A DNA stretch of 64,000 bases from Dehalococcoidia bacterium (GCA_965203855.1 CBDBDN010000005.1:321804-385803), one strand, 5' to 3'. Shown: positions 17,339-40,950, counted from the first letter of the stretch. Notes: a model not told the origin generated them from the sequence alone. Numbers and translations: made by a program.

Positions 17339-17393
17339 TTGTTGCGATGGGTTATAATCGGGCCAACCTTTCCATTCTATATGGAGAACCGCA

Positions 17394-20883: not shown

Positions 20884-22962
20884 ATGCGTTACGGATTTTC
20901 AGCGCCGCGATTTTACTTTGCCATATCGGTCCTGCCTTGGTTGGCGCTGCTGGGCTGGCTGGCCGCGTTGTCGTGGTTTATCAATGATGACGCCTTCATC
21001 AGCTTCCGCTATGCGCGCAACCTGCTGGAGGGGCACGGCCTGGTTTTCAATCCCGGCGAGCGGGTTGAGGGCTACTCCAACTTTCTGTGGACGCTGGAGC
21101 TGGCCGCTATCTGGGGCGTCTTTGGCCTAAAGCCGGAACACGCCGCGCCTTGGCTGTCCGTAGCCTGCACCGTCGGCACCCTGGCCGCCCTGCTGTGGTG
21201 GGGGCTACGCGCGCCGGCGCTGCCCTACCCGAAACTAACCACCTGGATGGCGTTGGGCCTGGTGTGCAGCAGCGCCACCTTTGCCGTCTGGACTTCCGGC
21301 GGCGGTCTGGAAACGCGGCAGTTCACCCTTTTTATCGTCCTGGAGGTGGTAAGCCTGTCCCTATACCGCCGCAACCGGTGGGGTTTGCTGGCGGCATCGC
21401 TGAGTCTGGCGGCGGCATCGCTGACCCGCCCGGAGGGGCCGCTTATTGCGGCGCTCTGCTGCGGCTGGTTCGTCATCCAGAGCATGGCCGACGCCGGCCG
21501 GCTGCGCCCCGACTGGCGCGGAATGGCGCACCTAATCGCCCCGTGCGCCATCTTGATTACCGCCCATTTTCTGTTTCGCTACGGCTACTATGGCGAATGG
21601 CTGCCCAACACTTACTACGCCAAATATGTACGCCCCTGGTACGAGCTCGGCTTTCAGTATCTGTCGGCGGCGGCGCTGGAAACCGGGCTGTATCTGCTGC
21701 TGCCATTGGCCTGGGTCGGACTGCGGCAGCGTTGGCGGGAATGCCGTGACGGGAGCTATGCGCTGGTTCTGCTCCTGGTCATCGTTTATAGCGTCTATGT
21801 AATGCGTATCGGCGGCGACATTTTTGAATACCGGCCGCTGGATTTCTACTGGCCGCTGCTGGCGCTGCCGGCGGCGACGGGCATAGTGCATCTGGGCCGC
21901 CGGATTGCCGACATAACACGAACATTTATACGGGGGAGGGTAATTTGGGGTACGCCGGCCTGGGCGCTGCTGATTTTTACGCCCGTGCTATTTTACGCCA
22001 GCGCGCTGCAAATAGCGCTGAGGCTTGAAGACAACATGAGATCCAGTAAAATATATATTGAACTTACTGCGGCAAACTACCCTTGGCTGCTGGCGGCGCC
22101 GGGAATGCCCGCCTTGTCTGCTCTCTCGCACGATTTACGCGTCTCTCTTTATCCACATAAGGCACGTAAGTTCACGCGCTATGATGTAGGCCGACTTGCC
22201 AGTCGGTGGCGGGCTGAATATCAACCTTATGAGAATCTGGAGCGCGGTCTAATTCCCGATGATGCGGTGACGGCTATCAACCGGTCGGGCATAATACCTT
22301 ACTATCTTGCGGATCTGAAAATTATTGACCGGTATGGCTTGACGGATGCAACCATAGCGCGCAACCCGGTCGCTAAACCCAACAGCCAGCGTGCTATCGC
22401 GCACGACCGCGAGCCGCCGCCCGGCTATCTGGCAGAGCGGGGCGTCAACATTTACGTATTCCCGGCCGTGAAAACGCCGGCCGCAGCCCTGGAACGCGCG
22501 CCCTACGCGGCGCAAGTCGGTCCCGACCTGTGGATGCCCTTTGACGCCATTGACCGGCAGTGGGTACTCCAACATTTCGGCAACTATAACCTGTTATTTC
22601 TGAACAGCGGGCCGGCTGTTGACGCGCCGCTTGCCGGCGGGCCGGCGATCCGCTCTACCTACTCCGTATATCACACTGGCAAATACCTACTGTATGTCAA
22701 AAAGGCTTGCCGGCTGACGGATTTGACAACGAATTTCATGGTGCATATAACTCCGGCTGATCCGAAAGACCTGCCCGCCGACCGGCGGCAGTACGGCTAT
22801 GACAACCTGGATTTCAGTATCATAAATTATGCGGCGCCCCGCAGCGGCGAGTGCGTTGTAATCCGCAAACTGCCGTCATATCCGATTGCCGCAATCACAA
22901 CCGGCCAATATAATGCGGAAGGCCGCCTCTGGGAAGGCGAAATCATCCCGGAGCCGCAATGA
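20884..22962 (+). CDS. GT-C-fold-like polytopic membrane glycosyltransferase candidate with a C-terminal unassigned module (paralogue A)
   Basis: About 12 TM segments. The first loop reads INDDAFISFRYARNLLEGHGLVFNPGERVEGYSNFLW. The C-terminal soluble part ends with the shared module (FMVHITPADPKDLPADRRQYGYDNLDF...TGQYNAEGRLWEGEI). Confidence 0.65.
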   Translation: MRYGFSAPRFYFAISVLPWLALLGWLAALSWFINDDAFISFRYARNLLEGHGLVFNPGERVEGYSNFLWTLELAAIWGVFGLKPEHAAPWLSVACTVGTLAALLWWGLRAPALPYPKLTTWMALGLVCSSATFAVWTSGGGLETRQFTLFIVLEVVSLSLYRRNRWGLLAASLSLAAASLTRPEGPLIAALCCGWFVIQSMADAGRLRPDWRGMAHLIAPCAILITAHFLFRYGYYGEWLPNTYYAKYVRPWYELGFQYLSAAALETGLYLLLPLAWVGLRQRWRECRDGSYALVLLLVIVYSVYVMRIGGDIFEYRPLDFYWPLLALPAATGIVHLGRRIADITRTFIRGRVIWGTPAWALLIFTPVLFYASALQIALRLEDNMRSSKIYIELTAANYPWLLAAPGMPALSALSHDLRVSLYPHKARKFTRYDVGRLASRWRAEYQPYENLERGLIPDDAVTAINRSGIIPYYLADLKIIDRYGLTDATIARNPVAKPNSQRAIAHDREPPPGYLAERGVNIYVFPAVKTPAAALERAPYAAQVGPDLWMPFDAIDRQWVLQHFGNYNLLFLNSGPAVDAPLAGGPAIRSTYSVYHTGKYLLYVKKACRLTDLTTNFMVHITPADPKDLPADRRQYGYDNLDFSIINYAAPRSGECVVIRKLPSYPIAAITTGQYNAEGRLWEGEIIPEPQ

Positions 22963-23099
22963 CCCGCCGCCCGCGCAATATGCTATACTAGCCATCGGCG
23001 ACCAGTATGCGCCGATGGCGGCAAATTAATTAACCGGTAACCGGCTCGTGGAGCCGGACGCTTATGCCCCGGGCCGAAACTTTCGTTGGCGCTCTCAAA

Positions 23100-25181
23100 A
23101 TGAATGCCAGGTTTTCAGCGCCGCGACTTTATTTCGTCATCGCAGTGCTGCCCTGGCTGGGGCTGCTGGGATGGCTGGCCGCGTTATCGTGGTTTATCAC
23201 TGATGACGCTTTCGTCAGTTTTCGCTATGCGCGCAATCTGCTGGAGGGGCACGGCCTGGTTTTCAATCCCGGCGAGCGGGTTGAGGGCTACTCCAACTTT
23301 CTGTGGACGCTGGAACTGGCTGCCCTTTGGGGCGTCTTTGGCGTAAAGCCGGAACACACCGCGCCCTGGCTGTCGGTGGCTTGCACTGTCGGAACCTTGG
23401 CCGCCCTGCTGTGGTGGGGGCTACGCACGCCGGCGTTGCCGCACCGGAAATTGACCACCTGGCTGGCCTTGGGCTTGGTGTGCAGCAGCGCCACTTTTGC
23501 GGTCTGGACTTCCGGCGGCGGGCTGGAAACGCGGCAGTTCACCCTTTTTATCGTCCTGGCAGTGGTCAGCCTCGCCTTATACCGCCGCAACCGTTGGGGT
23601 CTGTTGGCGGCATCGCTGAGTCTGACGGCGGCATCGCTGACCCGCCCGGAGGGGCCGTTGATTGCGGCTCTGTGCTGCGGCTGGTTCGTCATCCAGAGTA
23701 TGGCCGACGCCGGCCGGCTGCGCCCCGACTGGCGCGGAATGGCGTACTTAATCGCGCCGTGCGCCATCTTAATCGCCGCCCATTTTCTGTTTCGCTACGC
23801 CTACTATGGCGAATGGCTGCCCAACACTTACTACGCCAAATATGTGCGGCCCTGGTACGAGCTCGGGTTTCGGTATCTGTCGGCGGCGGCAATTGAAACG
23901 GGGTTGTATCTGCTGCTGCCGCTGGCCTGGGTCGGGCTGCGGCAGCGGTGGCGGGAATGCCGCGATGGGAGCTATGCGCTGGTTCTGCTCCTGGTCATCG
24001 TTTATAGCGTCTATGTAATGCGTATCGGCGCCGACCATTTTGAATACCGGCCGCTGGATTTCTACTGGCCGCTGCTGGCGCTGCCGGCGGCGACGGGCAT
24101 AGTGCATCTGGGCTGCCGGATTGCCGGCGCATTACAAACAATTGTATGGGTGCGAGGGGTAATTTTCAATGCGCCGGCCTGGGCGCTGCTGATTTTTATG
24201 CCCGTGCTATTTTACGCCAACATTATGCAAGCAATACTGCTGTTTGAGCACATCAACCAACCAGAGAAAGTGAGAGTTGAACTTACTGCGGCAAACTACC
24301 GCTGGCTGTTGGCGGCGCCGGGAATGCTGGCGCTGAACTCCATAGCCAACGACCTGCGCTACAGTAACTTGAAATATTTCGTCAGATCGCCCACATATCA
24401 TGACTTCTTAGCCGGCTCATGGCTGGCGGAATATACTCCCTACGAGAATATGCCGGTCGGGCTCATTCCTGATGATGCGGTTATGTATTCATGGCCTGCG
24501 GGTATAATACCTTACTATCTTGCCGATGTGAAGATTATTGACCGGTATGGCTTGACGGATGCAACCATAGCGCGCAACCCGGTCGCTAAACCCAACCAGG
24601 GGCGCCGCATCGCGCACGACCGCGAGCCGCCGCCCGGCTATCTGGTAGAGCGGGGCGTCAACATCTACGTATTCCCGGCGGCGAAAACGCCGTCCGCAGC
24701 CTTGGAACGCGCGCCCTACGCGGCGCAAGTCGGGCCCGACCTGTGGATGCCCTTTGACGCCATTGACCGGCATTGGGTACTCCAACATTTCGGCAACCAT
24801 AATCTGTTATTTCTGAACCACGCTCAAACCGTTGACGCGCCGTTTCTCGAAGGAAGGTTGCCGGCGATTCACTCTACCTACGCCGTATATCACACTGGCA
24901 AATACCTCGTATATGCCAAATCACGCTGCCGGCCGACCGATTTAACAACAAACTTCCTGGTGCATATAACTCCGGCTAATCCGAAAGACCTGCCCGCCGA
25001 CCGGCGGCAGTACGGCTATGACAACCTGGATTTCAGTTTCCAAAATTATGCGGCGCCCCGCAGCGGCGAGTGTGTCCTAACCGTCAAACTGCCGCAATAC
25101 CCGATTGCATCAATCAGAACCGGCCAGTACAATGACCAGGGCCGCATCTGGGAAGGCGAAATCATCCTGGATCCGCAATGA
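23100..25181 (+). CDS. GT-C-fold-like membrane glycosyltransferase candidate (paralogue B)
   Basis: Tandem paralogue of 20884..22962. Start placed at MNARFSAPRLYF because codons 23064-23099 look like a relic of the comD-like 5' end. Confidence 0.65.
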   Translation: MNARFSAPRLYFVIAVLPWLGLLGWLAALSWFITDDAFVSFRYARNLLEGHGLVFNPGERVEGYSNFLWTLELAALWGVFGVKPEHTAPWLSVACTVGTLAALLWWGLRTPALPHRKLTTWLALGLVCSSATFAVWTSGGGLETRQFTLFIVLAVVSLALYRRNRWGLLAASLSLTAASLTRPEGPLIAALCCGWFVIQSMADAGRLRPDWRGMAYLIAPCAILIAAHFLFRYAYYGEWLPNTYYAKYVRPWYELGFRYLSAAAIETGLYLLLPLAWVGLRQRWRECRDGSYALVLLLVIVYSVYVMRIGADHFEYRPLDFYWPLLALPAATGIVHLGCRIAGALQTIVWVRGVIFNAPAWALLIFMPVLFYANIMQAILLFEHINQPEKVRVELTAANYRWLLAAPGMLALNSIANDLRYSNLKYFVRSPTYHDFLAGSWLAEYTPYENMPVGLIPDDAVMYSWPAGIIPYYLADVKIIDRYGLTDATIARNPVAKPNQGRRIAHDREPPPGYLVERGVNIYVFPAAKTPSAALERAPYAAQVGPDLWMPFDAIDRHWVLQHFGNHNLLFLNHAQTVDAPFLEGRLPAIHSTYAVYHTGKYLVYAKSRCRPTDLTTNFLVHITPANPKDLPADRRQYGYDNLDFSFQNYAAPRSGECVLTVKLPQYPIASIRTGQYNDQGRIWEGEIILDPQ

Positions 25182-25304
25182 CTTGCCGCCCCCGGCCGGC
25201 CGCTTTATGCGCTATACTATCCATCCGTCCATACCGCACCGCCGCCGGCCGCCGGCGGCGTCCAGCCAATCAGCCAACCTACCCGCACAAGGAGCCAGTC
25301 GCCT

Positions 25305-25811
25305 ATGCCCTGGGCCGAAACCATCGTTGACACCCTCAAAAAGTGGGACACTTCACTCATCGCCTATGTCCCCGACATATCCATCGACCGCGTAACCAGC
25401 ATCATTGACGCCGACCCTTTCTTTCATCTGGTGTCCTGCACCCGAGAGGAGGAAGCCGTCGGCGTGGCCGTAGGCAGCTATGCCGTCGGGCGCAACGCCG
25501 CCGTCTTTATGCAGTCCAGCGGGTTCGGCAACAGCGTCAACGCCATCGCCAGCCTCTGCCTGCCCGCCCGCACCCCCATCCCCATCTTTATGAACCTGCG
25601 CGGCCAGGTCGGCGAATTCAACATCGCCCAGGTCGCTATGGGCCGCAACACTACCCCCATCCTCGACCTGTTCGGCATCGCCCACTACACCATTGAAAGC
25701 GAGGAACGGATGGATACCCTGCTGGACGGCATAATGAAATTGTGCCACGCCCACCGCAATCCGGTCGCCGTCTGTATGACCCCTATGCTGCACGGAGGCA
25801 AAATTGCTTAG
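25305..25811 (+). CDS. comD: Sulfopyruvate decarboxylase alpha-subunit-like (ThDP enzyme, Pyr domain)
   Basis: 168 aa. Matching segments are YVPDISIDRV, CTREEEAVGVAVG and FMQSSGFGNSVNAI. The split two-subunit layout is typical of ComDE. A phosphonopyruvate decarboxylase cannot be excluded. Confidence 0.7.
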   Translation: MPWAETIVDTLKKWDTSLIAYVPDISIDRVTSIIDADPFFHLVSCTREEEAVGVAVGSYAVGRNAAVFMQSSGFGNSVNAIASLCLPARTPIPIFMNLRGQVGEFNIAQVAMGRNTTPILDLFGIAHYTIESEERMDTLLDGIMKLCHAHRNPVAVCMTPMLHGGKIA

Positions 25812-26361
25812 GTTTGACGCCACCCAACTGGTACTCCGCCACGCCGGCGACAGCCCCATCGTCGGCAACCTCGGCCCCACCAGCGACGAGCTGTATCACG
25901 CCGGCCATCGCGACCGCAATTTCTACACCTATGGCAGTATGGGCCTCTGTTCGTCCATCGCCCTCGGCATGGCCTTGTCCACCAACGACAAGGTGATTTC
26001 GCTGGACGGCGACGGTTCCCTGCTGATGAACCTGGGCGCCATCGCCACCATTGGACGGGAAAACCCCGCCAACCTGGTAGTGGTCGTCTGGGACAACGAA
26101 GCCTGGGGGCAGACCGGCGGCCAGACCAGCCACACCGGAACCGGCACCGACCTGGCGGAAGTCGCCCGTTCCTGCGGCATCGGCAAAACGGCTACCGTCA
26201 ACGACCTGGAAACCCTGGAGGATATATTCGGGCGGGCCATGCGCGAGCCGGGTCCCTGGTTCATCGTCGCCAAAATTGAGGAAGCCCCGGAATATATGCC
26301 GGTAGCTCCGGTAGAGCCGGAGTTCACGCTGTACCGGTTCCGCAATACTTATACGGAATGA
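25804..26361 (+). CDS. comE: Sulfopyruvate decarboxylase beta-subunit-like (ThDP-binding PP domain)
   Basis: GSMGLCSSIALGMAL and the GDGSLLMNLGA...N ThDP motif. TTG start with an 8-nt overlap with the alpha subunit. Confidence 0.7.
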   Translation: MLRFDATQLVLRHAGDSPIVGNLGPTSDELYHAGHRDRNFYTYGSMGLCSSIALGMALSTNDKVISLDGDGSLLMNLGAIATIGRENPANLVVVVWDNEAWGQTGGQTSHTGTGTDLAEVARSCGIGKTATVNDLETLEDIFGRAMREPGPWFIVAKIEEAPEYMPVAPVEPEFTLYRFRNTYTE

Positions 26362-27089
26362 TTGGCGGGCGGCTGCCGGCCGGGTTCTCCTGCCGCATCG
26401 CCGCCGTTGCCGCTGCTATTGCCATTGCCATCGCCGCTGCCATTGTGGTTGTCGGCGGCGCGGTTGATCGCCAGCTCCGAAAGTTCCAGCACTTTGGCAG
26501 CGAGGACGGCGTTGCGCTCGCCCTCGGCCTTTAGTTGCGCCAGAAATTCCGACTGCATCGCCTGCATCACTTTCCGATCCTCTGCGCGTTCCTGCTCCTG
26601 CCGGGCGCGTTGCTGTTCTCGCTGGACGCGCTCTTCCTGACGCTCCTGCTCCTGCCGGGCGCGCTCCTGTTCTCGCTGGATGCGCTCTTCCTGACGCTCC
26701 TGCTCCTGCCGGGCGCGCTCCTGTTCTTGCCGGGCGCGTTCCTGTTCTCGCTGGACGCGCTCTTCCTGACGCTCCTGCTCCTGCCGGGCGCGCTCCTCTT
26801 GGCGTTCCTGTTCCCAACGCGCCTTGTCTTCCAGGCGCTCCTGCTGGCGGGCCTGCTCCGCCTCATGGTTCTTCATAAACTGCCAGAGGGACAAAATCAT
26901 CTCAAATCCTCCAACGAACCCTGACGCAGCAACCACAGCCGCCGTGTTGATTACCGCCGCCGTTACCGTGTCGGAGACCATCCGCGCATCCGTATTATAC
27001 GCCCAAAGCGTTACCAGCAGCGCCGCCGCTCCGCCAATTGCCGCAGCAATCGGGTAGATTATAACGATGGCAATGACAATCCGACTCAT
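26349..27089 (-). CDS. Membrane-anchored protein with a long (Q/R)EQER-repeat coiled coil
   Basis: Start at MSRIVIAIVII. Two TM helices, then ~130 aa of an E/R/Q periodic repeat and a Gly/Asn-rich tail. Confidence 0.55.
   Translation of the reverse strand: MSRIVIAIVIIYPIAAAIGGAAALLVTLWAYNTDARMVSDTVTAAVINTAAVVAASGFVGGFEMILSLWQFMKNHEAEQARQQERLEDKARWEQERQEERARQEQERQEERVQREQERARQEQERARQEQERQEERIQREQERARQEQERQEERVQREQQRARQEQERAEDRKVMQAMQSEFLAQLKAEGERNAVLAAKVLELSELAINRAADNHNGSGDGNGNSSGNGGDAAGEPGRQPPANHSV
26591..26800. repeat. In-frame 54-nt (18-aa) tandem repeat inside the coiled-coil gene
   Basis: The unit CCTGCTCCTGCCGGGCGCG..CTGTTCTCGCTGGA.GCGCTCTTCCTGACGCT occurs at 26591 and 26645. The copy at 26699 carries a 21-nt insertion, and a partial fourth copy follows. 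Confidence 0.85.
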
Positions 27090-27337
27090 CAGCTCCTTGC
27101 TCCCGCCCGCCGGCTGATGTAGCAATCCCGGCTGGCGCAGCGATTATAGCGGCAATACCCGCATTCCCGCCATCCGGCATAGAGATGCGAAACCCGCGCC
27201 TCAGCCGCGCCGGCCCATCCCGTTTGCGGCCGGCATCGGGTACTTCCTGCGTCGGCCCGGCGCAAACTGTACTGCCGGCGCTTCAGGCCCGTAGCAGCGC
27301 CGCAGATTTCTCCCCGAAAAATCCGGCAGCCGCTTGG

Positions 27338-29086
27338 TTAAGGCGCGGACGGCAGCGCAAACTCCGCTTCCCACAGTCGCGGCCCATCCGGTATGTACTG
27401 TCCAGTGTGAATCGCGGCAATAGAATACGGCGGCAGCTCCACTGTTGCGTTGCATTGTGCGCCAATCCGCCTGCCGTGTGTTGCAAAGGCAAAATCCAGG
27501 CCCTGATAGCCGTGCTGTTGTCGGTTAACTGATAAGTCTTCCGTTCTAATCGGGTAAATATGCAAAAAGAACAGAGCATCAACATCCGCTGCCGCGCAAT
27601 TCTCTTTGATATAGTACAGATTGCCGTCGCCCGCATAAATATCAAAATACGCGCGCGCCAGCGGTTCGCCTCCGGCAATCGGAGTATAAACGCCGGCTTC
27701 GCCGGAGGGCGCCATCGCAAACTCCGCTTCCCAAAGTCGCGGCCCGCCCCGTGTGTACTGGCCGGTGACTAGCAGCGTTATCGGGTGTCCCGGTAGCGCT
27801 ACGGACGCCGCGCACTTTCCGTCAGACAACAGGCCAACCCTTCTAAAATCAAAGTCCCGGTTCAGGAAGCCGTATTGTTGCCTACTGGCCGGCAAATCGC
27901 TTGGCTGCGCCGGGTAAATATGCAAAAAGAAGCTATCGGAAATATCCTCCGGAGAATAATTATCTTTGAAATAATATAGCCGGCCGTCTCTGCTGAAAAC
28001 ATTAAATACGGAACTGGATACTTGCTCAGCATCAGCAGCCGGCGTCGTGTAACTGGCCTCAAAGTACACCGACTGGTGCGTATCCGTAGTGAAATGCGCC
28101 AAAAGCGCCAGTCCGATGCCAACGGCAATTACCAGAACACATACCGCCGTGCCCAGCCGCTGCGGAGTAATCATTCCGGGCAATTTCAGGCCGCGACCCG
28201 GCCAATCCACTAATATGGCAAACCGCTTTTGCGACAGCAGTATCTCAACCGCATACCAGACGCTAATGATGCCAAGCAAATACTCGGTGAATTCCAGCGA
28301 GCGGTACGGGAAATACGCCGCCGCGTGGGCTTGCTGCATAGCATAAGCCTTGCCGCCAATGATTGCCGTGGCCGAAATTATCGCCGGCAGCAATTTGACG
28401 CGACCGCTGATTAGAGCATAACACGCCAGCAACGGCAGCAGCATAGTTATCTGGTTAAACAAAAAATACAAATATCTAGGCGACCAAACGTCATACTCAT
28501 ATGCGCTTGTTGCAATGATGCCCAGAATCATCAAAAACGAAGGCGCTGGAATACCCAGCAACCGATCCCGGCCGCAGAAAAATGCCGCAATCGCTATAAT
28601 ACACCAAATCAGGGCCGGTTGTGTGTAGAGTATATCGAACTGATCAGTGTATTTAGTACGAATGTTATGCAAATTCAATTCCTCTTGAATATTATTGTCC
28701 AGTAAATAATCCGGCGTCGCGAATCCAATAATTCGTTGCCCCCAGCTGATTTCTTCCCCGGCAACAAATACCAGCCCGATGCCGGCCAGAATGTACATAC
28801 TGCATACAAACTTACTCCCCCCCCCCCCCCGAGTCCGGCGGCGAGAAACAGCGTCGCTCCGGCTACCAAGAACCAAAACGCCGTAAGATATTCTACCCAG
28901 CTGTCCTCCAGCGCGAGCGCACTGTAAGTCGCCGGTTCGATGAGAGCTAGAACGCTAAAGCATAGAATATGTAAGCACACCACTCCGTAGCCGACCGCAG
29001 CAATACGGCCACCAAAACCGGCTGCGTCCCCCAGTAGATAGCTGAGATGCGGAGAACCCGTCGTCCGCCGCTGTCGGTGTAGCCAT
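27338..29086 (-). pseudogene. Polytopic membrane protein with two C-terminal copies of the shared module. The reading frame is broken at a C5/G5 run and a C14/G14 run.
   Basis: A strong RBS (AAGGAGGG) plus the ATG at 29086 are in frame with the long ORF 27338..28876. The ~200 nt between 29028-29032 and 28817-28830 is open only in another frame (ORF 28675..28983). That segment aligns with the N-terminus of the paralogue at 62840. Confidence 0.7.
28817..28830. repeat. 14-nt poly-C (poly-G on the coding strand) homopolymer inside a coding region
   Basis: Counted directly: cttact + 14 C + gagtcc. Confidence 0.95.
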
Positions 29087-29262
29087 CAGATTCCCTCCTT
29101 ATTCCCAAGCTCTTCCCCACCCGGCGCCGACATTATACAGCAACACGGCCCGGCGGCAATCAGCCAGCCCGTTTGCCACTGCCCGCCCGGTAGTCTATCA
29201 TTAGGGCGCGGGCGGCAGCCTCGGGCTGTCCCATTCGCGGCCCTCAGGAGATTACCAATTCT

Positions 29263-30327: not shown

Positions 30328-30395
30328 CGGCGCCGGTATGTGCAGTAGAATGTTGACGGCGCCGGCGGTTGCCGGCAGCGGGCGGCGGCACTAAA

Positions 30396-30845
30396 ATGAC
30401 TGCCAAAAGCGCTGCGCTCCCGGCCCGTCTGCTGCGTTATCTGGGGAACATCGTCCGCCTGGCGATTCTGGTCGGCATTTATGCGCTGGTGCTGTTTTAT
30501 TTGAATGCCACCGCCGCCGACCTGGATACCCCGCCCATCCCGACCAAAATCACCATCGCCCTTATCGCCCTCGGCATCACCGGCAGCATCTACCGCATTC
30601 TGGCCCAAATCGCCGCCGAAGCCAAAGGAGCTATCATGGTAATCGCCGCTTTCCTCAACACCCATCTGCTGGAACCCCGCAAGCAACGCCTCCGCGCCGA
30701 AGGATTCAACGAAGGCCAAGCGCAAGGCCGCGCCGCAACCTTGGCCGAAGTCCGTTCACTTTTGCAGGAACAGGGCTTCAATCTGAACGAGATCGCGCTG
30801 CCCCATGCCGGCGATACCGAATCCGAAAACGCGGAACGCTGCTAA
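30396..30845 (+). CDS. Hypothetical membrane protein inserted between the E1 alpha and E1 beta genes
   Basis: Two or three TM helices, then the tail FLNTHLLEPRKQRLRAEGFNEG...LQEQGFNLNEIALPHAGDTESENAERC. Confidence 0.5.
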   Translation: MTAKSAALPARLLRYLGNIVRLAILVGIYALVLFYLNATAADLDTPPIPTKITIALIALGITGSIYRILAQIAAEAKGAIMVIAAFLNTHLLEPRKQRLRAEGFNEGQAQGRAATLAEVRSLLQEQGFNLNEIALPHAGDTESENAERC

Positions 30846-30940
30846 ACCAACCTCAACCCGGCCCGACGCACCCGCAGTTCCCGAATGCAACGCCAATGGA
30901 CGAAAACATTAGGGCAAAAATGACGATGTAAAAGGACATC

Positions 30941-31174: not shown

Positions 31175-31239
31175 ACCAACCTCAACCCGGCCCGACGCAT
31201 CCGCCATTGCCGAATGCAACGCCAACGGACGAAAACATT

Positions 31240-32223: not shown

Positions 32224-32301
32224 CCCTGCGTCGCCCAACCAGATCGCAAACCCGTCCCGGCAGCCGGACAGCCAATAGCGCATTCCCAGTCATTAGCCGT
32301 C

Positions 32302-32321
32302 ATTCCGGCTTGCGCCGGAAT
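32302..32321. repeat. REP-like palindrome copy (inverted orientation)
   Basis: GTCATTCCGGCTTGCGCCGGAATCTA, intergenic between the E1 beta and E2 genes. Confidence 0.7.
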
Positions 32322-32432
32322 CTACGCACGCCGGTGGACTACGGCTTTCGCCGGGGATAAGGATCCATGCCCGAAAAGAAACGTTGCCATCCCAGTATTG
32401 GCTAACTAGATTGACCCAATGAGGATTAACCA

Positions 32433-33902: not shown

Positions 33903-34602
33903 CGCTGCGTCCAACGCCAATGCCAACGCCGCCGGCGCTCCCGGCGTCTGCCGCATCATCCGCGCCGGCATCGTACCCTACCGCCAGGCGTGGGACTGGC
34001 AGCTTGAAATTGCCGACCAGGTGCGGAACGGCGCCGCCCCCGAAACCCTCCTGCTGCTGGAACACCCCCCCACTTACACCCGCGGCCGCCTGGCCCCCGA
34101 CAGCCACCTCCTCCTGGACGCCGCCGCCCTGGCCGCGCGCGGCATCACTCTGGTAGAAACCGACCGCGGCGGCCTGATTACCTGGCACGGCCCCGGCCAG
34201 CTCGTAGCCTACCCCGTCATCCGGCTGCGCGGGCGCGGCGGTCCCCACTGGTATGTCCGCACTCTCGAGCAGGTAATCATCGCCGCCTTGTCCGATTTCG
34301 GAATGCCGGCGACTGCCGTTGCCGGATTGACCGGCGTCTGGACCGCCGACGGACGTCGCAAGATTGCCGCCATCGGCGTCAAAATCGCCGGCGGCATCGC
34401 CTATCACGGCTTTGCCGTCAACATTGACCCCGACTTGACGATGTACGACGGCATCATCCCCTGCGGCATCCCCGACCGGGGCGTAACCGCCCTGGCCGCC
34501 GAACTGCCCACGCCGCCGCCCCCAGACGCCGTAGCCAACGCCCTGTCCCATCATTTCTGCGCCGCCATCGGCCTGAAGCCTTTGTACCCGGATTTTTTGT
34601 AA
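33880..34602 (+). CDS. lipB: Octanoyltransferase (lipoyl(octanoyl) transferase)
   Basis: Matching segments are LLLEHPPTYTRG, ETDRGGLITWHGPGQLVAYP, KIAAIGVKI and PCGI. The only in-frame ATG overlaps the E2 end by 23 nt. Confidence 0.85.
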   Translation: MTLPPFTDAASNANANAAGAPGVCRIIRAGIVPYRQAWDWQLEIADQVRNGAAPETLLLLEHPPTYTRGRLAPDSHLLLDAAALAARGITLVETDRGGLITWHGPGQLVAYPVIRLRGRGGPHWYVRTLEQVIIAALSDFGMPATAVAGLTGVWTADGRRKIAAIGVKIAGGIAYHGFAVNIDPDLTMYDGIIPCGIPDRGVTALAAELPTPPPPDAVANALSHHFCAAIGLKPLYPDFL

Positions 34603-34607
34603 TCATC

Positions 34608-34640
34608 ATCCCGGCGCAAGCCGGAATGACGATGAATATG
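34608..34640. repeat. REP-like palindrome copy
   Basis: ATCCCGGCGCAAGCCGGAATGACGATGAATATG sits between lipB and the convergent SGNH gene. Confidence 0.6.
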
Positions 34641-34661
34641 TCCGCACGCCTTGATAGAGCG

Positions 34662-35942
34662 CTAGGGCGATGTCCCCATCTCGCAAACCTCCCGGTTGTG
34701 TTCCAGCCATTCCAGCAAGGCTTCCGCCGCCCACTGGTGGCCGGCGGGAGTCCAGTGAATATCGTTAGTCCAGACGGCTGCGGAGAGGTCTCCGCCCTGG
34801 CGGAGGATGTAATCGTGCAGGTTGATGACTGGAATGTTATGCGCGGCGGCAAGTCGGTTTAAGAGATTAAACCGGGGGTGCTGCCGACCGCCCATTGCGG
34901 TTTCGGAGAGGATAACCAGGGCGGCGCCGTCGCGTGCGGCGCGGGCCTGAAATTCGCCCAGCGCCAAGCCGGTAAGCGTAATGGCTTGCTGGTAGGCGGG
35001 GGCGGGATTGTCGGCGGCAATCTGATCATACAATGCCTGGTGGCCGGACAGCGCGGCGTCTGTTGGCTGCCAGCCGTCCAACAGGCCGGACGCATCATAA
35101 TGCTGGCGGTACAGTTCCAGGTACTGGCGGCGCTCCGGCACGATGTCCACTAGATACCTGCGATGCAGCTGTTTGAACTTGAGGTCCAGCCACCGCGCGA
35201 ACCAGGATACCCGGCCAGCTTGGTGAAGTTCCCGGCTAATCAGCGGCGGCGGCGTTGCCGGCGGCACATAAGCCGGATTATCCGGGTCAGGATTATGCCA
35301 TTGCAAAGTTCCGTCCGGGGCCAATTCCGCAGCCAGATACTCACCCTGCCCCGGCGGTTTCCGAGTATAGACCATGGTTAATAGAGGAGAATTGTCTTGC
35401 AGGTCGTTAGGGTAAAAGACCAAAACTACCAAATCGGGGTTCAGCCGGCGCGCAAACCGGTCGTAAAGCGGCAGCTGACCAAACTGGCCGCTGCCGTTAA
35501 GTCCGTATGCGGATACAGTAAGGGCGAGCTCCGGCAGTCTCTGCTCGGCCAACTGCGCCAGCTTTACCTGAATTTTGTCGGCAATGGGTACTTCTGTCGC
35601 TGCTACGAAAGAATCGCCGATGATGCTGATGTGGCAGCCCGCCGCCGCCCGCTCCGGGCTGACGGGTTCCCGATCCATAAAGCCCAGGCTGTTGGTGCGC
35701 TCGGTTACCCAGAAATCATCGTAGTTGGTCCAGCGCATTTCGGTGTCGGGCGCAAACAAACGGCCAATGCCGGGGACAAACACCGTCAGCAACTGCCGTT
35801 CCATAAAGGGCTTGGACAGTCGGAAATAGGCTTCTCCGGCAAGCCAAATCAAGGCCAAGCCCGCTAGAATGAGCAGCGCATTCCAGCTAATCAGCCTGGC
35901 AACCCGGTAGAGTCGGGGGGGGGGGATAGAATTTAGTCGCAT
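34662..35942 (-). CDS. Membrane-anchored SGNH/GDSL-type hydrolase (paralogue 1)
   Basis: N-terminal TM helix. SGNH blocks are IIGDSF, YGLNGSG, FYPNDL and a C-terminal DIHWTPAGH. A C11 run spans codons 6-9 (IPPPR). Confidence 0.72.
   Translation of the reverse strand: MRLNSIPPPRLYRVARLISWNALLILAGLALIWLAGEAYFRLSKPFMERQLLTVFVPGIGRLFAPDTEMRWTNYDDFWVTERTNSLGFMDREPVSPERAAAGCHISIIGDSFVAATEVPIADKIQVKLAQLAEQRLPELALTVSAYGLNGSGQFGQLPLYDRFARRLNPDLVVLVFYPNDLQDNSPLLTMVYTRKPPGQGEYLAAELAPDGTLQWHNPDPDNPAYVPPATPPPLISRELHQAGRVSWFARWLDLKFKQLHRRYLVDIVPERRQYLELYRQHYDASGLLDGWQPTDAALSGHQALYDQIAADNPAPAYQQAITLTGLALGEFQARAARDGAALVILSETAMGGRQHPRFNLLNRLAAAHNIPVINLHDYILRQGGDLSAAVWTNDIHWTPAGHQWAAEALLEWLEHNREVCEMGTSP
35915..35925. 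repeat. 11-nt poly-G (poly-C on the coding strand) tract in codons 6-9 of the SGNH gene
   Basis: Counted directly: agtc + 11 G + ataga. Confidence 0.95.
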
Positions 35943-36029
35943 AGGTTGGAGCCGTAACGATAGCGGATGCGCTGGGGTTCAGCAGGATGAAATCGGCAAC
36001 TGGCCAGCATCAACTAACTCTCGCATCAG

Positions 36030-37298
36030 TTAGCCATTCCGCTGGCAGACTTCCGGGTCTTGTTCCAGCCATTCCAGCAGGGCCTCCGCCGCCCACTGGT
36101 GGCCTTGGGGAGTCCAGTGGGAGTCGTGATTCCAGACGCCGGCGGCGAGGTCTCCGCCTTGGCGGCGAATGTAGTCGTGCTGGCTGATAACCGGAATGCC
36201 ACGTGCGGTGGCCAATCTACTTAATAGATTAAACTGGGCGTGGCCGCGGCCGCCCATTTGGATTTCGGAGAGTATCACCAGCGCGGCGCCGTCCCGTTCT
36301 GCGCGGGCCTGGAATTCGCCAAGGGCCAGGTCGGTAAGCGTAACGGCTTGCTGGTATGGGGGAGGAGGATTTGCGGCGGCAAGCTGGTCGCGCAGCGCCC
36401 GGAGTTTGGACAGCGCGGCAGTTTCGGGCTGCCAGCCGTCAAGCACGCCCGCATCATCATAGCGCTGGCGGTAGAGTTCCAGGCGCCGGCGCCGCTCCAC
36501 TACAATATCCTGTAGGTACTCTTTGTGCCACAATCGGTACTTGGCGCCCAGCCACTGCGCGAACCAGGATACCCGGCCGGCTCGGTAAAGCGCCCGGGTA
36601 AGCAAGGGATTTGGCCTTGCCGGGCTTGCGTAAGCCAGAAAATCCGGATCAGGCAAATGCCATTGCAAGGTTCCGTCTGGGCCCAGCGCCGCGGCTAGAT
36701 ACTGGTGCCGGCCCGGTACTATCCCATTATAGACCAGGTCCAGTAAAGGGGAATTATTTTCCAGGTCGTTAACGACAAATACCAGAATTACCAACTCGGG
36801 GTTCAGCCGGCGCGCATAGCGGTCGTAAAGTGGCAGCTGTCCGAACTGGCCGCTGCCGTCGAGGCCATAGGCTGATGCGGTAATGTCCAGTTCCGGCAGC
36901 CGCTGCGCCGCCAGCTGCGTCATCCGGGTCTGAAACTTGTCGGCAACAGGCACTTGCCGGGCGCCTACGAAAGAATCGCCGATGATGCTGATATGGCAGC
37001 TTGACGCCGCCCGCTCTGCGCTGACGGGTTCCCGGTCCAGAAAACCTAGGCTGTTGGTGCGCTCCGTTACCCAGAAATCCAGATAGTTGGTCCAGTTCAC
37101 TGCTGTGTTGGGCGCGTACATATAGCCCACGCCGGGGACAAACACATTCGGATACGACCGTTCCATATGGGGCTTGGTCAGGCGGAGCCAGCCTTCGCCG
37201 GCAATTCCAATCAGCGCCAAGCCGACGACAATCAGCAGCGCATTCCAGCCAATCAGTTTGGCGACCCGATAAAGTCGGGGCGGTAAAATCAGGCGCAT
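36030..37298 (-). CDS. Membrane-anchored SGNH/GDSL-type hydrolase (paralogue 2)
   Basis: Same block structure (IIGDSF, YGLDGSG, VNDL, DSHWTPQGH). ATG at 37298 (MRLILPPRLYRV) matches the paralogue's start. Confidence 0.72.
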   Translation of the reverse strand: MRLILPPRLYRVAKLIGWNALLIVVGLALIGIAGEGWLRLTKPHMERSYPNVFVPGVGYMYAPNTAVNWTNYLDFWVTERTNSLGFLDREPVSAERAASSCHISIIGDSFVGARQVPVADKFQTRMTQLAAQRLPELDITASAYGLDGSGQFGQLPLYDRYARRLNPELVILVFVVNDLENNSPLLDLVYNGIVPGRHQYLAAALGPDGTLQWHLPDPDFLAYASPARPNPLLTRALYRAGRVSWFAQWLGAKYRLWHKEYLQDIVVERRRRLELYRQRYDDAGVLDGWQPETAALSKLRALRDQLAAANPPPPYQQAVTLTDLALGEFQARAERDGAALVILSEIQMGGRGHAQFNLLSRLATARGIPVISQHDYIRRQGGDLAAGVWNHDSHWTPQGHQWAAEALLEWLEQDPEVCQRNG

Positions 37299-37380
37299 AG
37301 ATTGGAGCCACAACGATAGCGGATGTGTTGGCGTTCAGCAGATGAAATCAGCGGGACAGGGCCTGCGATGTTGAGGTCCG

Positions 37381-40300
37381 CTACTGTACCATAAACTCCT
37401 TTTCCCACAGCCTATACTGCCCGGTGGCGATTTTATGGATGGGATAATCCGGCAGCAGCGCCGTGGCAATGCACTGCCGGCCCAGCCGCGTCCCGTTGTC
37501 CTCAAACGCAAAATCCCGGTTTTCAAATTCAACGCCGTTCTCACGGGCCTGTCGCGGCAAGTCGTCCCCGTCCACCGGATACACGTGCAACAAGAACCCC
37601 GCCTCGGTTGCGGACGCCGCGCACAAGATCTCAATGTAATACACCCGGCCCGCCTTGTGGTACACATCAAAATCGCCCCGCGCCGCCGGCTGCTCCATTG
37701 CCAAATACTCCAGCATTGCCGCGCCTAGCCATCCTTCCGACTCCCACAGCCGCGTCCGGCCATCCGAATCCACCTGCCCCGTGCGGACGCCAATCACCGT
37801 GTACCCCGGCAATGGCACGGCTGCCAGGCAGTTCCCGTCAAACTCCCCGCCGCCTTCCAGGTCAAACTCAAAGGCCAGGTTTTCATACCCGTGTGCGCGC
37901 CGCCCCTCGTCCAGGTCATTCACATCGGCCGGTATCAGATGCAGAAAGAATGTCGCCGCCGTATCCCCCGCCGCGCAACCCTCTCTGGCATAAATCAATT
38001 CCCCGCCGACTTGATATAGGTCAAAAAAGTCCTCCGCTATGGGTTCCAACCCGGCCAGCGTAGCATACTTGTCGCGCAGCGCCGGCACATCGGCCGCCGA
38101 CGCCGTTGACGCCGTAGCCGCCGGCTGTAGCAGCGTCGGCACATCCGGCGTCGCCGCCGTTCCAACGCCTTGCGCTGCGTCATCCCCCGGCAGCGTCGTC
38201 GCCGTCCAAAGCCGATCCTGGCCGGGGATATATTGCCCGGTGCGGATGCCCGCCAGCGGGTAGTCGGGCAAAGGCGCGCTGAACAGGCATTTCCCGTCAA
38301 TTCGCACGCTGCCCGTCCGCTCAAACCCGAAATCCCGGTTCTCGTATCCATACTCTTGCCGGCCGGCCGGCAAGTCATTCACATCATCAGGAAACAGATG
38401 CAGAAAGAAAGGCGCCGCCGTATCCGCATCAGCGCATTCCGCCCGCGCGTAAATCACCGCATTACCGCTGCGGTAAATGTCAAAAAAGCCTTCCGCTATC
38501 GGTGCCCCCGCCGTCAGCGACGCATACCGGGCCCGCTGGGCGTCAAAATAAGCGTCGGTGTAAATCTCCCCTTCCCACAGCCGGTCGTCGCCAGTAATGT
38601 ATTGCCCGGTTCGTATCACCCCCACCGCATAATCGGGCAGCGGAACGGACGCCAGGCATTTGCCGTCAAACCGCCCGCCCGCTTGGCTGAACACAAAATC
38701 CCGGTTCTGAAACCCCAATTCCCGCCGGCCGTCCGGCAAATCGGCGCTGTCCACCGGTATCAGATGCAGGAAAAAGGGCGCCGCAGTGTCGTCAATGGCG
38801 CAAGATTCCCGAATGTACACCACCGCATCATCCTGGACATACACCTCAAAATCAGTGCGGAGCGCCGGCGTCCCGGCAACTGCATAGTCATACTTGCTCC
38901 GGTACAGCGTCGCGTTCACTTGCCAATGCCTTAGCTCATCAGACTGCCCGGTGCTGATATTGCCGATACTGTAATCCGGCAGGGGCGCAAACGCCAGGCA
39001 CTGCTCGCCAAAAATCGCCCCCCGTTCCTCAAATCGGAAATCCCGGAATTCCAGCCCATCAGCGCGTATCCCGGCCGGCAGCCGGCTCCGGTCGTTAGGC
39101 GTGATATGCAGGTAAAACGGCGTTGCCGTATCCTCCGCAGCGCACGATTCCCGCAGATAAGACACCGTCCGCGCGCCCACATAAACATCAAACGCCCCGT
39201 CTCTGCCGTCAATCTCGGCCCCGGTCGCCACATCGTGGGCCACATACCGGCGATAAAAGTCGGCGTTGCCAACGCCCGCCGCGTCAAACCCGAAACCCAC
39301 GCCGTACCCCAGCAGCGCCGTCGGTTCCAGCCCCGGCGTCGTCAGCAGCCCGGCAGTCCCGTAATCTGTGCCGCCGCCATCCGTCGCTGCCGCGCATCCC
39401 CGGTCGCCCCGGCCCGGCAGCCAGGCAATAGATACGGGGCCGGCGGCGCTTTCTACCGCCAGCGCCGCCCGCAATTCCGACAAATCGCAGGGCAGACGGC
39501 GCAGCTCCCCCGGAGTTTCTTGCGGAGTTTCCTGCGGCCTGTTCTGATGAATATACGCCGCCGCCAGGTTGTTGGTGAACACGGCCCCGCCGTCCGCCGC
39601 CGCCCGCTCCAGGTAATCCGGCAACGGCGAATCGACCCACCCCGCCCCGGCGTATCCCAGCTCGGCATCGCTGCCCTGATTGGCCGCCGCTACCGCGCGC
39701 CCGTTGGACACCGCCAGCAATGCCAGCCAGATGCCCAGCGCCGCCGCCAGTACCGCCAGCGGCAGCGGCATCGCCCCATTGCCGGCCCGCCCCTGTTCCT
39801 GCCGCCGCGCCAGAAACAGATCGGCGGCCAGCAGCCCCAGGAACAGCAGCGGCAAATAGACCGGCGCCAGCTGCCGCGCCTGGAATCCGGCCCCGCCGGC
39901 ATCGCCGAGCGCCAGCGTCGTCAATAGCGCAATGAAATACAACAGCGCAAACCCGCCGAATACATAGCCGGGACGCGGCCCTTCCGCATCGTAATAGCCG
40001 CCCTCCGACCGGCCGCCATAGTCATAAGCGATTGCGAACACGCACAGCAGGATTGCCGCCAGCAGCCCCAGCGCGCCCAGCGCAATCACTGCCGCGCCTA
40101 ATCCCAGCTGCGCCAGGCTGATGCCCGGCAAGTCGGGAATAACCCAGCCGAACAGGGCCGCGGGTATGCCGGCCAGCGCATCGCGGAACGAACCGGATGC
40201 GACCCCGCCGCTGGTGTCCGTTTCGCCGCCGGACAGCAGTCTCCATAGCAGCCACAGCACCAGCGGAACTACCCCAATCAGCGCATAAATGCCGATGCGT

Positions 40301-40950
40301 TTCACTTTATCCAACGCCGCCGTCCCGCCCTGCAACGCCAGCAGTATTATCACCGTCGCCAGTACTGCCAGCCCCATATAGTTCGTCAGGCCGGCCAGCG
40401 CGGTGAACCCCGCCGCCCACAGCAAAGCGGAGATTTTGCCCCCGCTCAGGAACCGTTCCGTATGGATCAATGCCAAAGTCGCCCAGAGGACAAACGCCGT
40501 TTCCGGCAATGCCCACGCCGCCGCTCCCGCCAGCGGTATGGACAGCATTACCGCCAAGCATCCCGCCGCCGCCAGCAAGCCGGACTGCAAACGCGTCCGC
40601 AGGTAGATCCCGGCCGCCGCTATCGTTGCGGCGAATAGCACGGCATTGAGCGGGCCGGCAACGCTGTGCGGGTCCAACACTCCCCACAGACTTGCCGCCG
40701 CCAGCATCAGCGGATACAGCGGCGGGAACGACGCATAAGGCAAGCCGCTGTATCCCGTGAACCCGTTGCCGGCCAGCAGGCTGCGCGCCGCGGCGATATG
40801 CTCCACGGCATCCCATTCCAGCCCTATGCCGTAGCCCAAGCCGCGCGCCAGAACCAGCGCGCCGCCCACCACGGCAGCAACGGCCAGCAGCGCGGCGTAC
40901 CAGTCCAACCGGAATCCGCCGCCGCCCTCATATTCCACCCGATTTACCAT
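37381..40950 (-). CDS. Giant GT-C/ArnT-PMT-like polytopic membrane protein with five C-terminal copies of the shared module
   Basis: The N-terminal ~560 aa is multi-TM, with AAARSLLAGNGFTGYSGLPYASFPPLYPLMLA. The C-terminal ~600 aa is five ~115-aa repeats with the pattern FD.Y...Y..E.C...DT...FFLH..P.D..DLP..R..G..NRDF.F.....G.C.....LPDY.....RTGQY....RLWE.E. Confidence 0.75.
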   Translation of the reverse strand: MVNRVEYEGGGGFRLDWYAALLAVAAVVGGALVLARGLGYGIGLEWDAVEHIAAARSLLAGNGFTGYSGLPYASFPPLYPLMLAAASLWGVLDPHSVAGPLNAVLFAATIAAAGIYLRTRLQSGLLAAAGCLAVMLSIPLAGAAAWALPETAFVLWATLALIHTERFLSGGKISALLWAAGFTALAGLTNYMGLAVLATVIILLALQGGTAALDKVKRIGIYALIGVVPLVLWLLWRLLSGGETDTSGGVASGSFRDALAGIPAALFGWVIPDLPGISLAQLGLGAAVIALGALGLLAAILLCVFAIAYDYGGRSEGGYYDAEGPRPGYVFGGFALLYFIALLTTLALGDAGGAGFQARQLAPVYLPLLFLGLLAADLFLARRQEQGRAGNGAMPLPLAVLAAALGIWLALLAVSNGRAVAAANQGSDAELGYAGAGWVDSPLPDYLERAAADGGAVFTNNLAAAYIHQNRPQETPQETPGELRRLPCDLSELRAALAVESAAGPVSIAWLPGRGDRGCAAATDGGGTDYGTAGLLTTPGLEPTALLGYGVGFGFDAAGVGNADFYRRYVAHDVATGAEIDGRDGAFDVYVGARTVSYLRESCAAEDTATPFYLHITPNDRSRLPAGIRADGLEFRDFRFEERGAIFGEQCLAFAPLPDYSIGNISTGQSDELRHWQVNATLYRSKYDYAVAGTPALRTDFEVYVQDDAVVYIRESCAIDDTAAPFFLHLIPVDSADLPDGRRELGFQNRDFVFSQAGGRFDGKCLASVPLPDYAVGVIRTGQYITGDDRLWEGEIYTDAYFDAQRARYASLTAGAPIAEGFFDIYRSGNAVIYARAECADADTAAPFFLHLFPDDVNDLPAGRQEYGYENRDFGFERTGSVRIDGKCLFSAPLPDYPLAGIRTGQYIPGQDRLWTATTLPGDDAAQGVGTAATPDVPTLLQPAATASTASAADVPALRDKYATLAGLEPIAEDFFDLYQVGGELIYAREGCAAGDTAATFFLHLIPADVNDLDEGRRAHGYENLAFEFDLEGGGEFDGNCLAAVPLPGYTVIGVRTGQVDSDGRTRLWESEGWLGAAMLEYLAMEQPAARGDFDVYHKAGRVYYIEILCAASATEAGFLLHVYPVDGDDLPRQARENGVEFENRDFAFEDNGTRLGRQCIATALLPDYPIHKIATGQYRLWEKEFMVQ

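Follow-up and report, generated by a model that had tools for sequence, protein, structure and literature searches.

What surface machinery is encoded by a group of membrane-protein genes that all end in the same, unfamiliar repeat? The question is raised by a 64,000-nucleotide stretch of DNA from a Dehalococcoidia bacterium (GCA_965203855.1 CBDBDN010000005.1:321804-385803), here called the window, in which a module of about 105 amino acids (aa) closes five genes, A to E. We consider it fairly probable that these genes belong to a horizontally shared, phase-variable family of surface-glycan enzymes equipped with a new glycan-binding or spacer repeat; binding, switching, the selective agent and the habitat are the parts of this account that we infer. 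Nine complete copies and one truncated copy of the module, verified by translation, lie at the extreme C-termini of the five genes, bearing out the coordinates and the count of at least ten copies given in the initial annotation, and the consensus proposed there proved accurate in an alignment of the window copies. The five genes are as follows.

20884-22962, plus strand: gene A, AftB-like GT-C glycosyltransferase of 692 aa with one C-terminal module at 22639-22959 (NF041481, PDB 9dlf, module profile).
23064-25181, plus strand: gene B, tandem paralogue of A with one C-terminal module at 24858-25178 (module profile, NF041481); the true start is probably 23100.
27338-29086, minus strand: gene C, nine-helix membrane domain followed by two modules at 27698-28027 and 27341-27667, disrupted in this assembly (translation).
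37381-40950, minus strand: gene D, polytopic protein of 1189 aa, putatively of GT-C type (PMT_2-related), with five C-terminal modules at 38884-39213, 38542-38871, 38176-38505, 37717-38046 and 37384-37692 (module profile).
62840-64000, plus strand: gene E, paralogue of C (phmmer comparison of the two N-terminal domains, E=5e-55), whose first module, from 63932 on, is truncated by the window edge.

A hidden Markov model (HMM) built from the nine complete window copies and run over all six frames of the 64 kb retrieves each complete copy at domain E-values of 1e-40 to 1e-46 (1.5e-44 for gene A) and the partial copy of gene E at E=6e-3, and finds no further copy. The window modules share 29-53% pairwise identity, apart from those of genes A and B, which are 79% identical within proteins that are 81% identical overall; we regard the copies as old, diverged repeats, neither recent duplicates nor chance similarities. 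Fifteen positions are invariant among them (Y19, F33, H36, P39, L45, G53, F59, C72, L78, P79, T88, G89, Q90, R97 and W99). Across 869 unique complete modules of about 30-50% overall identity, exactly two cysteines are present in 858, and C24 (99.3%) and C72 (99.8%) rank at the top of the conserved positions along with W99, P79 and G89; residues D28, H36, T88, G89, Q90 and W99 are conserved at 80-100%.

The family is large. A profile search of 1.84 billion representatives of clusters at 50% identity retrieves 2,440 proteins at E<=1e-3, a lower bound on family size, with 1,940 at E<=1e-10 and 753 at E<=1e-30, and single proteins carry up to 10 copies. Among the best 150 of the 2,440, the module array always closes the protein (median of 0 aa after the last module) and is mostly preceded by an N-terminal region of about 520 aa. 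In genome loci we counted 263 modules in 142 open reading frames (ORFs) at 65 loci, with 1-11 copies per chain and single-copy forms common (A, B and many loci). The genes are arranged in tandem on one strand, with as many as six paralogues within 20 kb.

The initial annotation could assign the module to no known family, and this still holds. Neither Pfam-A 2025 nor NCBIfam r20 matches the module in the five window proteins and 75 relatives, a PADLOC scan likewise yields no match for it, and PDB sequences searched with the module profile give only chance matches, the best being a GABA-A receptor at E=1. Matches to 'Subtilosin_A' were discarded as noise from Gly/Ala-rich linkers. An AlphaFold2 model computed from a 17-sequence alignment is all-beta with eight strands, at a predicted local distance difference test score (pLDDT) of 94.7 and a predicted TM-score (pTM) of 0.85. 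Foldseek searches of this model against PDB and BFVD return nothing at E<=1e-3; the nearest likenesses are FN3 monobodies, Ig-like domains, the Amuc_1438 glycopeptidase domain and CBM31, at TM-scores of about 0.3-0.5. The module is thus modelled as a beta-sandwich that has no close solved relative.

Several observations place the module outside the cytoplasm, as the initial annotation had suggested. The near-invariant Cys pair reads as the signature of an intradomain disulfide. Of 19 family members with a short N-terminus, ten have a signal peptide, a lipobox or a signal anchor at their start, and the remainder resemble truncated gene calls. The AlphaFold2 model of an intact C-type protein, P0221 (pLDDT 83.8), shows nine transmembrane helices followed by two modules, and in gene E a K/R-rich loop (8 K+R) precedes the last predicted transmembrane segment. 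A Kyte-Doolittle predictor returned inconsistent helix counts and was not used, so that topology was taken from the Cys pair, the signal peptides and the AlphaFold2 helices. Because of the Cys pair, the signal peptides and anchors, and the position after the last transmembrane helix, we conclude that the module is predicted to be extracytoplasmic.

The enzymes to which the module is attached point in the same direction. Gene A matches the AftB model NF041481 at E=4.6e-11 and gene B at E=3.8e-9, and the structure of AftB (PDB 9dlf) aligns with aa 13-261 of gene A at E=1.1e-6. The NF041481 score is 41 bits against an equivalog cut-off of 1050; since the scores fall so far under this cut-off, A and B are best described as putative relatives of AftB within the GT-C superfamily, not as orthologues. 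Gene D itself has no Pfam or PDB match, and a profile of the D-type family finds nothing in PDB either, whereas six of its 19 homologues match PMT_2 (best E=2.9e-6), so that its GT-C membership (PMT_2/ArnT-like) is suggested by transitive homology only. The earlier description of these proteins as GT-C-like therefore stands directly for A and B and only through homologues for D. Candidate acidic motifs, read from the translations, follow the first hydrophobic helix in A ('INDDAF') and in D ('EWDAVEH'). Among 46 other module-family members, 13 match PMT_2/PMT, and Wzy_C, Polysacc_deac_1 (a CE4 deacetylase) and GDSL each occur on single members. All recognisable partners are of kinds whose glycan substrates would lie on the outer side of the membrane, and the tie to envelope-glycan enzymes proposed at the outset is upheld by the AftB-like, PMT_2-like, Wzy_C, CE4 and GDSL partners. 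The module is thereby a predicted beta-sandwich appended to a carbohydrate-active enzyme, as expected of an accessory domain of the CBM (carbohydrate-binding module) or Ig-like kind.

Genes C and E share a different N-terminal domain of nine helices with an invariant GEE..Q, His and Glu, which in the family alignment appear as the motifs 'AGEEISWGQ', 'NVHN' and 'E..EYL'. No Pfam model matches this domain, the C-type family profile finds none in PDB, and Foldseek with the full C-type model against PDB finds none. The domain appears to be an enzyme whose active site faces outwards.

Related cassettes add genes for putative sugar donors. At two loci (L018 and L034) a HAD-UbiA fusion and a FAD_binding_4 (DprE1-like) oxidase adjoin AftB-like genes, a gene set that, by analogy, follows the logic of the decaprenyl-phospho-arabinose (DPA) pathway. 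At three others (L040, L055 and L037) a GT2 glycosyltransferase and a small LPG_synthase_TM-like protein lie upstream of a module-bearing transferase; in L040 the order is LPG_synthase_TM-like protein (1e-14), GT2 (6e-21) and polytopic module protein. The window contains no UbiA, DprE1 or other donor-pathway genes and no gtrABC-type gene arrangement.

How widely is the family shared? One peptide pattern, run against 185,579 species-representative genomes, matched at 62 loci, all in metagenome-assembled genomes (MAGs). Of these, 38 are from Chloroflexota (Dehalococcoidia, Tepidiformaceae and Caldilineaceae) and 24 from Vicinamibacterales, Bryobacterales, Nitrospirales, Binatia, Latescibacterota, Spirochaetia, Pseudomonadales and other Gammaproteobacteria, Thalassobaculaceae, Azotimanducaceae and Entotheonella. 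A-type proteins of the window are 58-63% identical over about 685 aa to those of Gamma-/Alphaproteobacteria or Nitrospirales and 58% identical to that of another Dehalococcoidia, so that the cross-phylum values are no lower. At the nucleotide level, cassettes of about 7 kb are 95-97% identical among the Acidobacteriota Vicinamibacterales and Bryobacterales and a gammaproteobacterium, a 4.5-kb cassette is 94% identical between Nitrospirales and the alphaproteobacterial Thalassobaculaceae, and one of about 6 kb is 90% identical between Gamma- and Alphaproteobacteria. Because of these nucleotide identities and the A-type protein identities, the cassettes are best explained by recent horizontal transfer across phyla, among organisms that must share a habitat. 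The notion of a lineage-specific system has to be given up, the family being present in MAGs of many phyla with cassettes 90-97% identical between them. Multi-kb cassettes of 90-97% identity were seen at L040/L055/L037 (about 5.8-15.4 kb), L018/L034 and L038/L036/L029, and a DDE transposase lies at one cassette edge (L040, 15562-17415).

The shared habitat is probably marine sponges, because of the taxon mix, the presence of Entotheonella and the names of certain contigs. Sponges are known hosts of Entotheonella. The contigs that bear the closest relatives of the window genes are named PANK22-1_SAMN1229..., which we take to be a study code for Pankey et al. 2022. That work is cited as a sponge-microbiome study in PMC12717976, and the taxon mix is as in MAG sets from high-microbial-abundance sponges (PMC12648040). 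A literature search by MAG and sample accession found no paper on them, and the texts of sponge genome notes mention none of the family-level taxa. Among 241 million records of JGI metagenomes, only four weak module relatives (27-36% identity) were found.

This distribution, together with the fold, invites the alternative of a host-facing adhesin or 'eukaryote-like' Ig/FN3-type domain that would bind sponge matrix or receptors, serving symbiont recognition or escape from phagocytosis, with the enzyme being secondary. The weak Foldseek likeness to FN3 monobodies, cytokine-receptor FN3/Ig and Ig-like domains (TM-score about 0.45), the near confinement of the family to a symbiont-like MAG consortium with near absence from the JGI records, and multivalent arrays of up to 11 copies would all suit such a role. 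However, the module is always fused to, or anchored beside, cytoplasmic-membrane glycan enzymes, it would lie below the outer membrane in Proteobacteria, Acidobacteriota and Nitrospirales, and the FN3, Ig and cadherin Pfam models have no sequence match to it, and we regard an adhesin as unlikely. We give about the same low weight to a passive stalk or spacer, an oligomerisation domain or a cell-wall/S-layer anchor that recognises no specific ligand, for which a strictly terminal, disulfide-stabilised compact fold in 1-11 copies would be well suited; yet D28, H36, T88, G89, Q90 and W99, which are polar or aromatic residues of surface type, are conserved beyond the needs of a spacer, and single-copy forms are common.

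The second unusual feature of the family concerns homopolymers, which, like the horizontal transfer, had gone unmentioned in the initial annotation and which alter the meaning of the locus. The window holds only two G/C runs of at least 9 nucleotides (nt), one in gene C and one in a neighbouring hydrolase gene, SGNH1.

28817-28830, minus strand: G14 homopolymer tract in gene C (C14 on the plus strand), the main frameshift site (sequence).
35915-35925, minus strand: C11 tract in SGNH1 codons 6-9 (G11 on the plus strand), in frame here (sequence).

In 1.2 Mb of genome loci there are 33 such G/C runs, the longest of 26 nt, and no A/T run of at least 9 nt. The 5' zones of module ORFs, taken from 200 nt before to 300 nt after the 5' boundary, cover 5.5% of the sequence and contain 18 of the 33 runs (binomial P=1e-14). 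For runs of at least 15 nt, about 0.02 are expected from an estimate for independent, identically distributed bases and 11 are observed, seven of them in the 5' zones. Most other tracts are also linked to the family, since they occur in split module genes (L008, L015, L031 and L063), at the 5' end of the HAD-UbiA gene (C22 in L018, C9 in L034) or at the junction of the GT2 and module genes (L037, L040 and L055). Tracts at 5' ends were seen at L002, L006, L012, L015, L018, L020, L023, L025, L027, L035, L048 and L063, in several phyla. In C/E-type genes of Dehalococcoidia and Spirochaetia, poly-C follows soon after the start codon, directly ahead of the conserved N-terminal motif; a locus of Binatia (L022) probably has the same arrangement, with no clear start codon upstream of the tract.

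Tract lengths differ between close copies. Two adjacent paralogues with near-identical leaders in the Dehalococcoidia MAG L002 differ in that C12 in one keeps the frame of the ATG and C13 in the other loses it, and the 95-97% identical cassettes carry G11, G12 and G9. Sequence comparison hence reveals both an enrichment of tracts at 5' ends and length differences between near-identical alleles that toggle the frame, the two features that characterise contingency loci. A text search of the literature found no report linking sponge symbionts to phase variation or homopolymeric tracts. Many database 'proteins' of the module family (P0001-P0054) are pieces of 70-190 aa that start mid-module on megabase contigs; these entries appear to be gene-caller products of frameshifted, tract-bearing genes, as with the C22 tract in L063 (3889-6579) upstream of P0001.

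Gene C is frameshifted, as had been noted initially. Translation starts at the ATG at 29086, and the frame is lost at a T4 run (29014-29017) and at the G14 run. On the related metagenome contig L066 the homologue, with 86% aa identity, is intact and in frame, with G9 at this site. An exact-pattern scan of JGI metagenomes for the flanks of the gene C tract gave no match.

Could the tracts lack any regulatory role, being poly-Pro or poly-Gly linkers, mutational debris or consensus errors, with the frameshifted genes as pseudogenes of a decaying, selfishly spreading family? That the assemblies show most tract-bearing genes out of frame, that gene C has a further frameshift and a missing Cys, that Pro or Gly runs would be encoded whatever the frame, and that short-read relatives lack tracts is all consistent with this explanation. 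It does not, however, account for the strong 5'-end enrichment, which includes non-coding sites upstream of start codons (L048, L040 and L055), for lengths that are not multiples of three, for long ORFs that persist past the tracts to the canonical module terminus, for adjacent in-frame and out-of-frame paralogues, or for the use of single-codon homopolymers in place of mixed Pro/Gly codons; we therefore rate it as slightly less likely even than the two alternatives considered above. Finally, the near-invariant His, Asp, Thr and Gln might suggest that the module is itself catalytic, for instance a small esterase or lyase acting on the glycan, which is very improbable for a beta-sandwich of about 105 aa that occurs up to 11 times per chain, is always an appendage of a recognisable enzyme and has no match among catalytic families.

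Comparison with close relatives points to rapid change in gene content. Among the MAGs with module loci, the Dehalococcoidia MAG L002 is nearest to the window, at 80-87% nucleotide identity (ispG, decarboxylase). A syntenic contig of 87-94% identity (L071) has a single A-type gene at the place of the A-B pair, and three C-type genes where the window has one. On a contig 95-97% identical to the window (L072-L075), a complete 1.46-kb gene of C/E type, P0249 (488 aa), lies between DUF3105 genes, where the window has only about 70 nt (45177-45247); the alignment presents this site as a clean presence/absence polymorphism. A protein 96% identical to gene D, P0062, is present in other metagenome samples. 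These comparisons depict a fast-evolving multigene family whose members are gained and lost between close strains. The window genes are interleaved with housekeeping genes (dapB, BCKDH E1/E2, lipB and purine genes) and are dispersed paralogues, not one co-located system. The original idea of a single modification system fails accordingly, the genes being scattered among housekeeping genes and varying in copy number between relatives that are 87-97% identical.

We thus return to a horizontally shared, phase-variable family of surface-glycan enzymes and hypothesize the following mechanism. The module repeats would bind the polymer under modification, or set the distance of the catalytic domain from it, and would act, by analogy, like the C-terminal carbohydrate-binding domains of mycobacterial arabinosyltransferases. 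Cassettes would travel between phyla together with genes for polyprenyl-phosphate sugar donors (HAD-UbiA and a DprE1-like oxidase, or GT2). Slipped-strand mispairing at poly-G/C tracts, in the first codons or just upstream, would switch single enzymes on and off. The population would then display a surface-glycan coat that varies stochastically; such variation could plausibly help against phages or keep a host, probably a sponge, from recognising the cells. The more far-reaching version, in which a consortium-wide mobile set of phase-variable glycan enzymes, marked by the repeat and including the nine-helix family, spans at least eight phyla, probably in the microbiome of high-microbial-abundance sponges, and gives stochastically mixed coats, is a tentative proposal in which we place rather less confidence.

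Several points weigh against these proposals. For the module, neither structure nor sequence gives a significant match to a CBM family, the conserved polar positions D28, H36, T88, Q90 and W99 are placed by the alignment, and hydropathy-based prediction of transmembrane helices is inconsistent. In diderm hosts the module would be periplasmic, which suits substrate binding and not direct exposure to host or phage. For the tracts, switching is deduced from static assemblies, and long homopolymers are error-prone in long-read consensus, making individual ON/OFF calls unreliable; the OFF reading of most tract-bearing genes might also reflect decay, and the short-read relatives that lack long tracts are L071-L075. 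The second frameshift of gene C is an extra T at 29014-29017, the Cys missing from its module 1 is the first (Cys24), and this copy may be decaying. The sponge origin is drawn from the taxon mix and from what is read as a study code in the contig names, and not from sample metadata.

The remaining features of the window are listed below.

25305-26361, plus strand: alpha/beta pair of a thiamine diphosphate (ThDP) decarboxylase (25305-25811 and 25804-26361), sulfopyruvate/phosphonopyruvate-decarboxylase-like (TIGR03845, TIGR03846).
26349-27125, minus strand: membrane-anchored coiled-coil protein, Glu/Arg/Gln-rich, adjoining gene C (translation).
34662-35942, minus strand: SGNH1, membrane-anchored SGNH/GDSL hydrolase (PF13472, E=5e-9; N-terminal anchor read from the translation).
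36030-37313, minus strand: SGNH2, paralogous SGNH/GDSL hydrolase directly downstream of D (PF13472, E=3e-6).
41532-42329, plus strand: paralogue of the coiled-coil protein, adjoining gene D (translation).
45177-45247, no strand: empty site between DUF3105 genes at 44354-45286 and 45326-46015 (comparison with the 95-97% identical contig).

Both enzyme types that had been reported among the module genes were recovered by Pfam, the two SGNH hydrolases as Lipase_GDSL_2 and the ThDP decarboxylase pair as TPP_enzyme_N and TPP_enzyme_C. The link to the SGNH hydrolases is loose: in its favour, the SGNH2-D neighbourhood is kept in the close relatives L064 and L065, one family member is a fusion of GDSL and module, and SGNH1 carries the C11 tract, at the equivalent place of which SGNH2 has an interrupted CCGCCCC. 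The ThDP pair scores 5e-36 against TIGR03845 and 3e-49 against TIGR03846, both under the NCBIfam cut-off, and is nearest to sulfopyruvate decarboxylase ComDE and also to phosphonopyruvate decarboxylase, under both cut-offs. It stands beside module genes only in related Dehalococcoidia (L002, L023 and L071), and because the neighbourhood recurs only there, the pair is probably a mere syntenic neighbour. Examination of gene neighbourhoods in relatives, advised in the initial annotation, thus brought out the glycan-donor genes of related cassettes and left the ThDP adjacency as ordinary synteny. The pair may serve sulfonate metabolism instead of belonging to the envelope set. A phosphonate decoration made through this decarboxylase was considered and dropped, as the 64-kb window contains no phosphoenolpyruvate (PEP) mutase motif.

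The coiled-coil paralogues contain long EQERQEER... repeats, and similar small genes flank C-type genes in L071 (9224-9520 and 12624-13202); such genes might promote recombination between paralogues. Elsewhere, 2819-3616 and 3690-4445 on the minus strand hold tandem paralogues, about 80% similar, that share their N-terminal motifs ('DAYPEILSPLPDPEMQERPR...'), end in a coiled coil and by eye look like Uma2/DUF820-type endonuclease-like proteins. Small accessory genes lie among housekeeping genes at 16252-18347 and 48563-51113, and by eye include what look like a PIN-domain toxin (16883-17338), a PIN-like protein (49291-50079) and a helix-turn-helix protein with an ImmA/IrrE-like peptidase (49803-51113).

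If the consortium-wide version holds, no earlier contingency-locus system would have been described in Chloroflexota or in the mutualistic community of an animal, and the system would directly link horizontal transfer, phase variation and recognition by host or phage. Surface glycans are the obvious interface for bacterial persistence in a phagocytic, phage-rich filter feeder; the module family, with at least 2,440 clusters, would mark the relevant envelope enzymes, and the G/C tracts offer a candidate switching mechanism that can be read from existing long-read data. Contingency loci of the simple-sequence-repeat type, mainly known from a few pathogens, would be extended to uncultured Chloroflexota and other environmental phyla, and the tracts would explain the fragmentary, 'frameshifted' ORF annotation of these genes in MAGs. 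The nine-helix family with its invariant GEE..Q, H and E is flagged as a candidate membrane enzyme.

Four known systems are close enough for comparison. In the mycobacterial and corynebacterial arabinan machinery, AftB, EmbA/B/C and AftD are GT-C enzymes with periplasmic C-terminal carbohydrate-binding domains, and the DPA donor is made by the UbiA protein Rv3806c, a phosphatase and DprE1/E2. Here, too, A and B match AftB, a beta-rich domain predicted to be extracytoplasmic follows the GT-C core, and related cassettes combine UbiA-HAD with a DprE1-like oxidase. In contrast, the similarity to AftB covers only the first ~260 residues, the module is unrelated in sequence to known CBMs, and the window has neither UbiA nor DprE1. 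The gtrABC systems of Shigella and Salmonella phages consist of the flippase GtrA, the GT2 enzyme GtrB and the serotype-specific membrane transferase GtrC, and are phase-variable in Salmonella. The L040/L055/L037 cassettes have a comparable order of small membrane protein, GT2 and polytopic transferase in a mobile cassette beside a transposase, with a putative on/off element, the tract, between GT2 and transferase. Unlike in gtrABC, however, the switch would be a homopolymer tract in place of Dam/OxyR epigenetics and the transferase carries the new module; neither a phage context nor a GtrA Pfam match was seen in these cassettes.

Sponge symbionts are enriched in eukaryote-like repeats such as ankyrin, TPR, LRR, FN3 and cadherin. 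The module resembles these as a repeat family common to unrelated members of what is apparently one host-associated consortium, the habitat link being our inference; it differs in matching none of those Pfam families and in being fused to bacterial envelope enzymes and not to a secreted effector or adhesin. Poly-G/C contingency loci, finally, control phase-variable lipooligosaccharide, capsule and flagellin-glycan transferases in Campylobacter jejuni, Neisseria and Haemophilus (PMC8355987, PMC5084427, PMC3068675). As in those species, long G/C tracts stand early in, or just upstream of, surface-glycan enzyme genes, with in-frame and out-of-frame alleles, tract lengths that vary between near-identical copies and many paralogous loci per genome. 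Unlike those host-adapted pathogens, the hosts are uncultured Chloroflexota, Acidobacteriota, Nitrospirales, Binatia, Spirochaetia and others, the tracts reach 26 nt, the genes encode polytopic GT-C and other enzymes with a new C-terminal repeat, and the loci are known from assemblies alone. The module family, its nine-helix partner domain and the joint occurrence, in uncultured bacteria of symbiont type, of sharing across phyla and homopolymer tracts appear undescribed so far. Precedents exist for each ingredient, in the accessory beta-sandwiches of glycan enzymes, in contingency loci with poly-G and in mobile cassettes that modify glycans.

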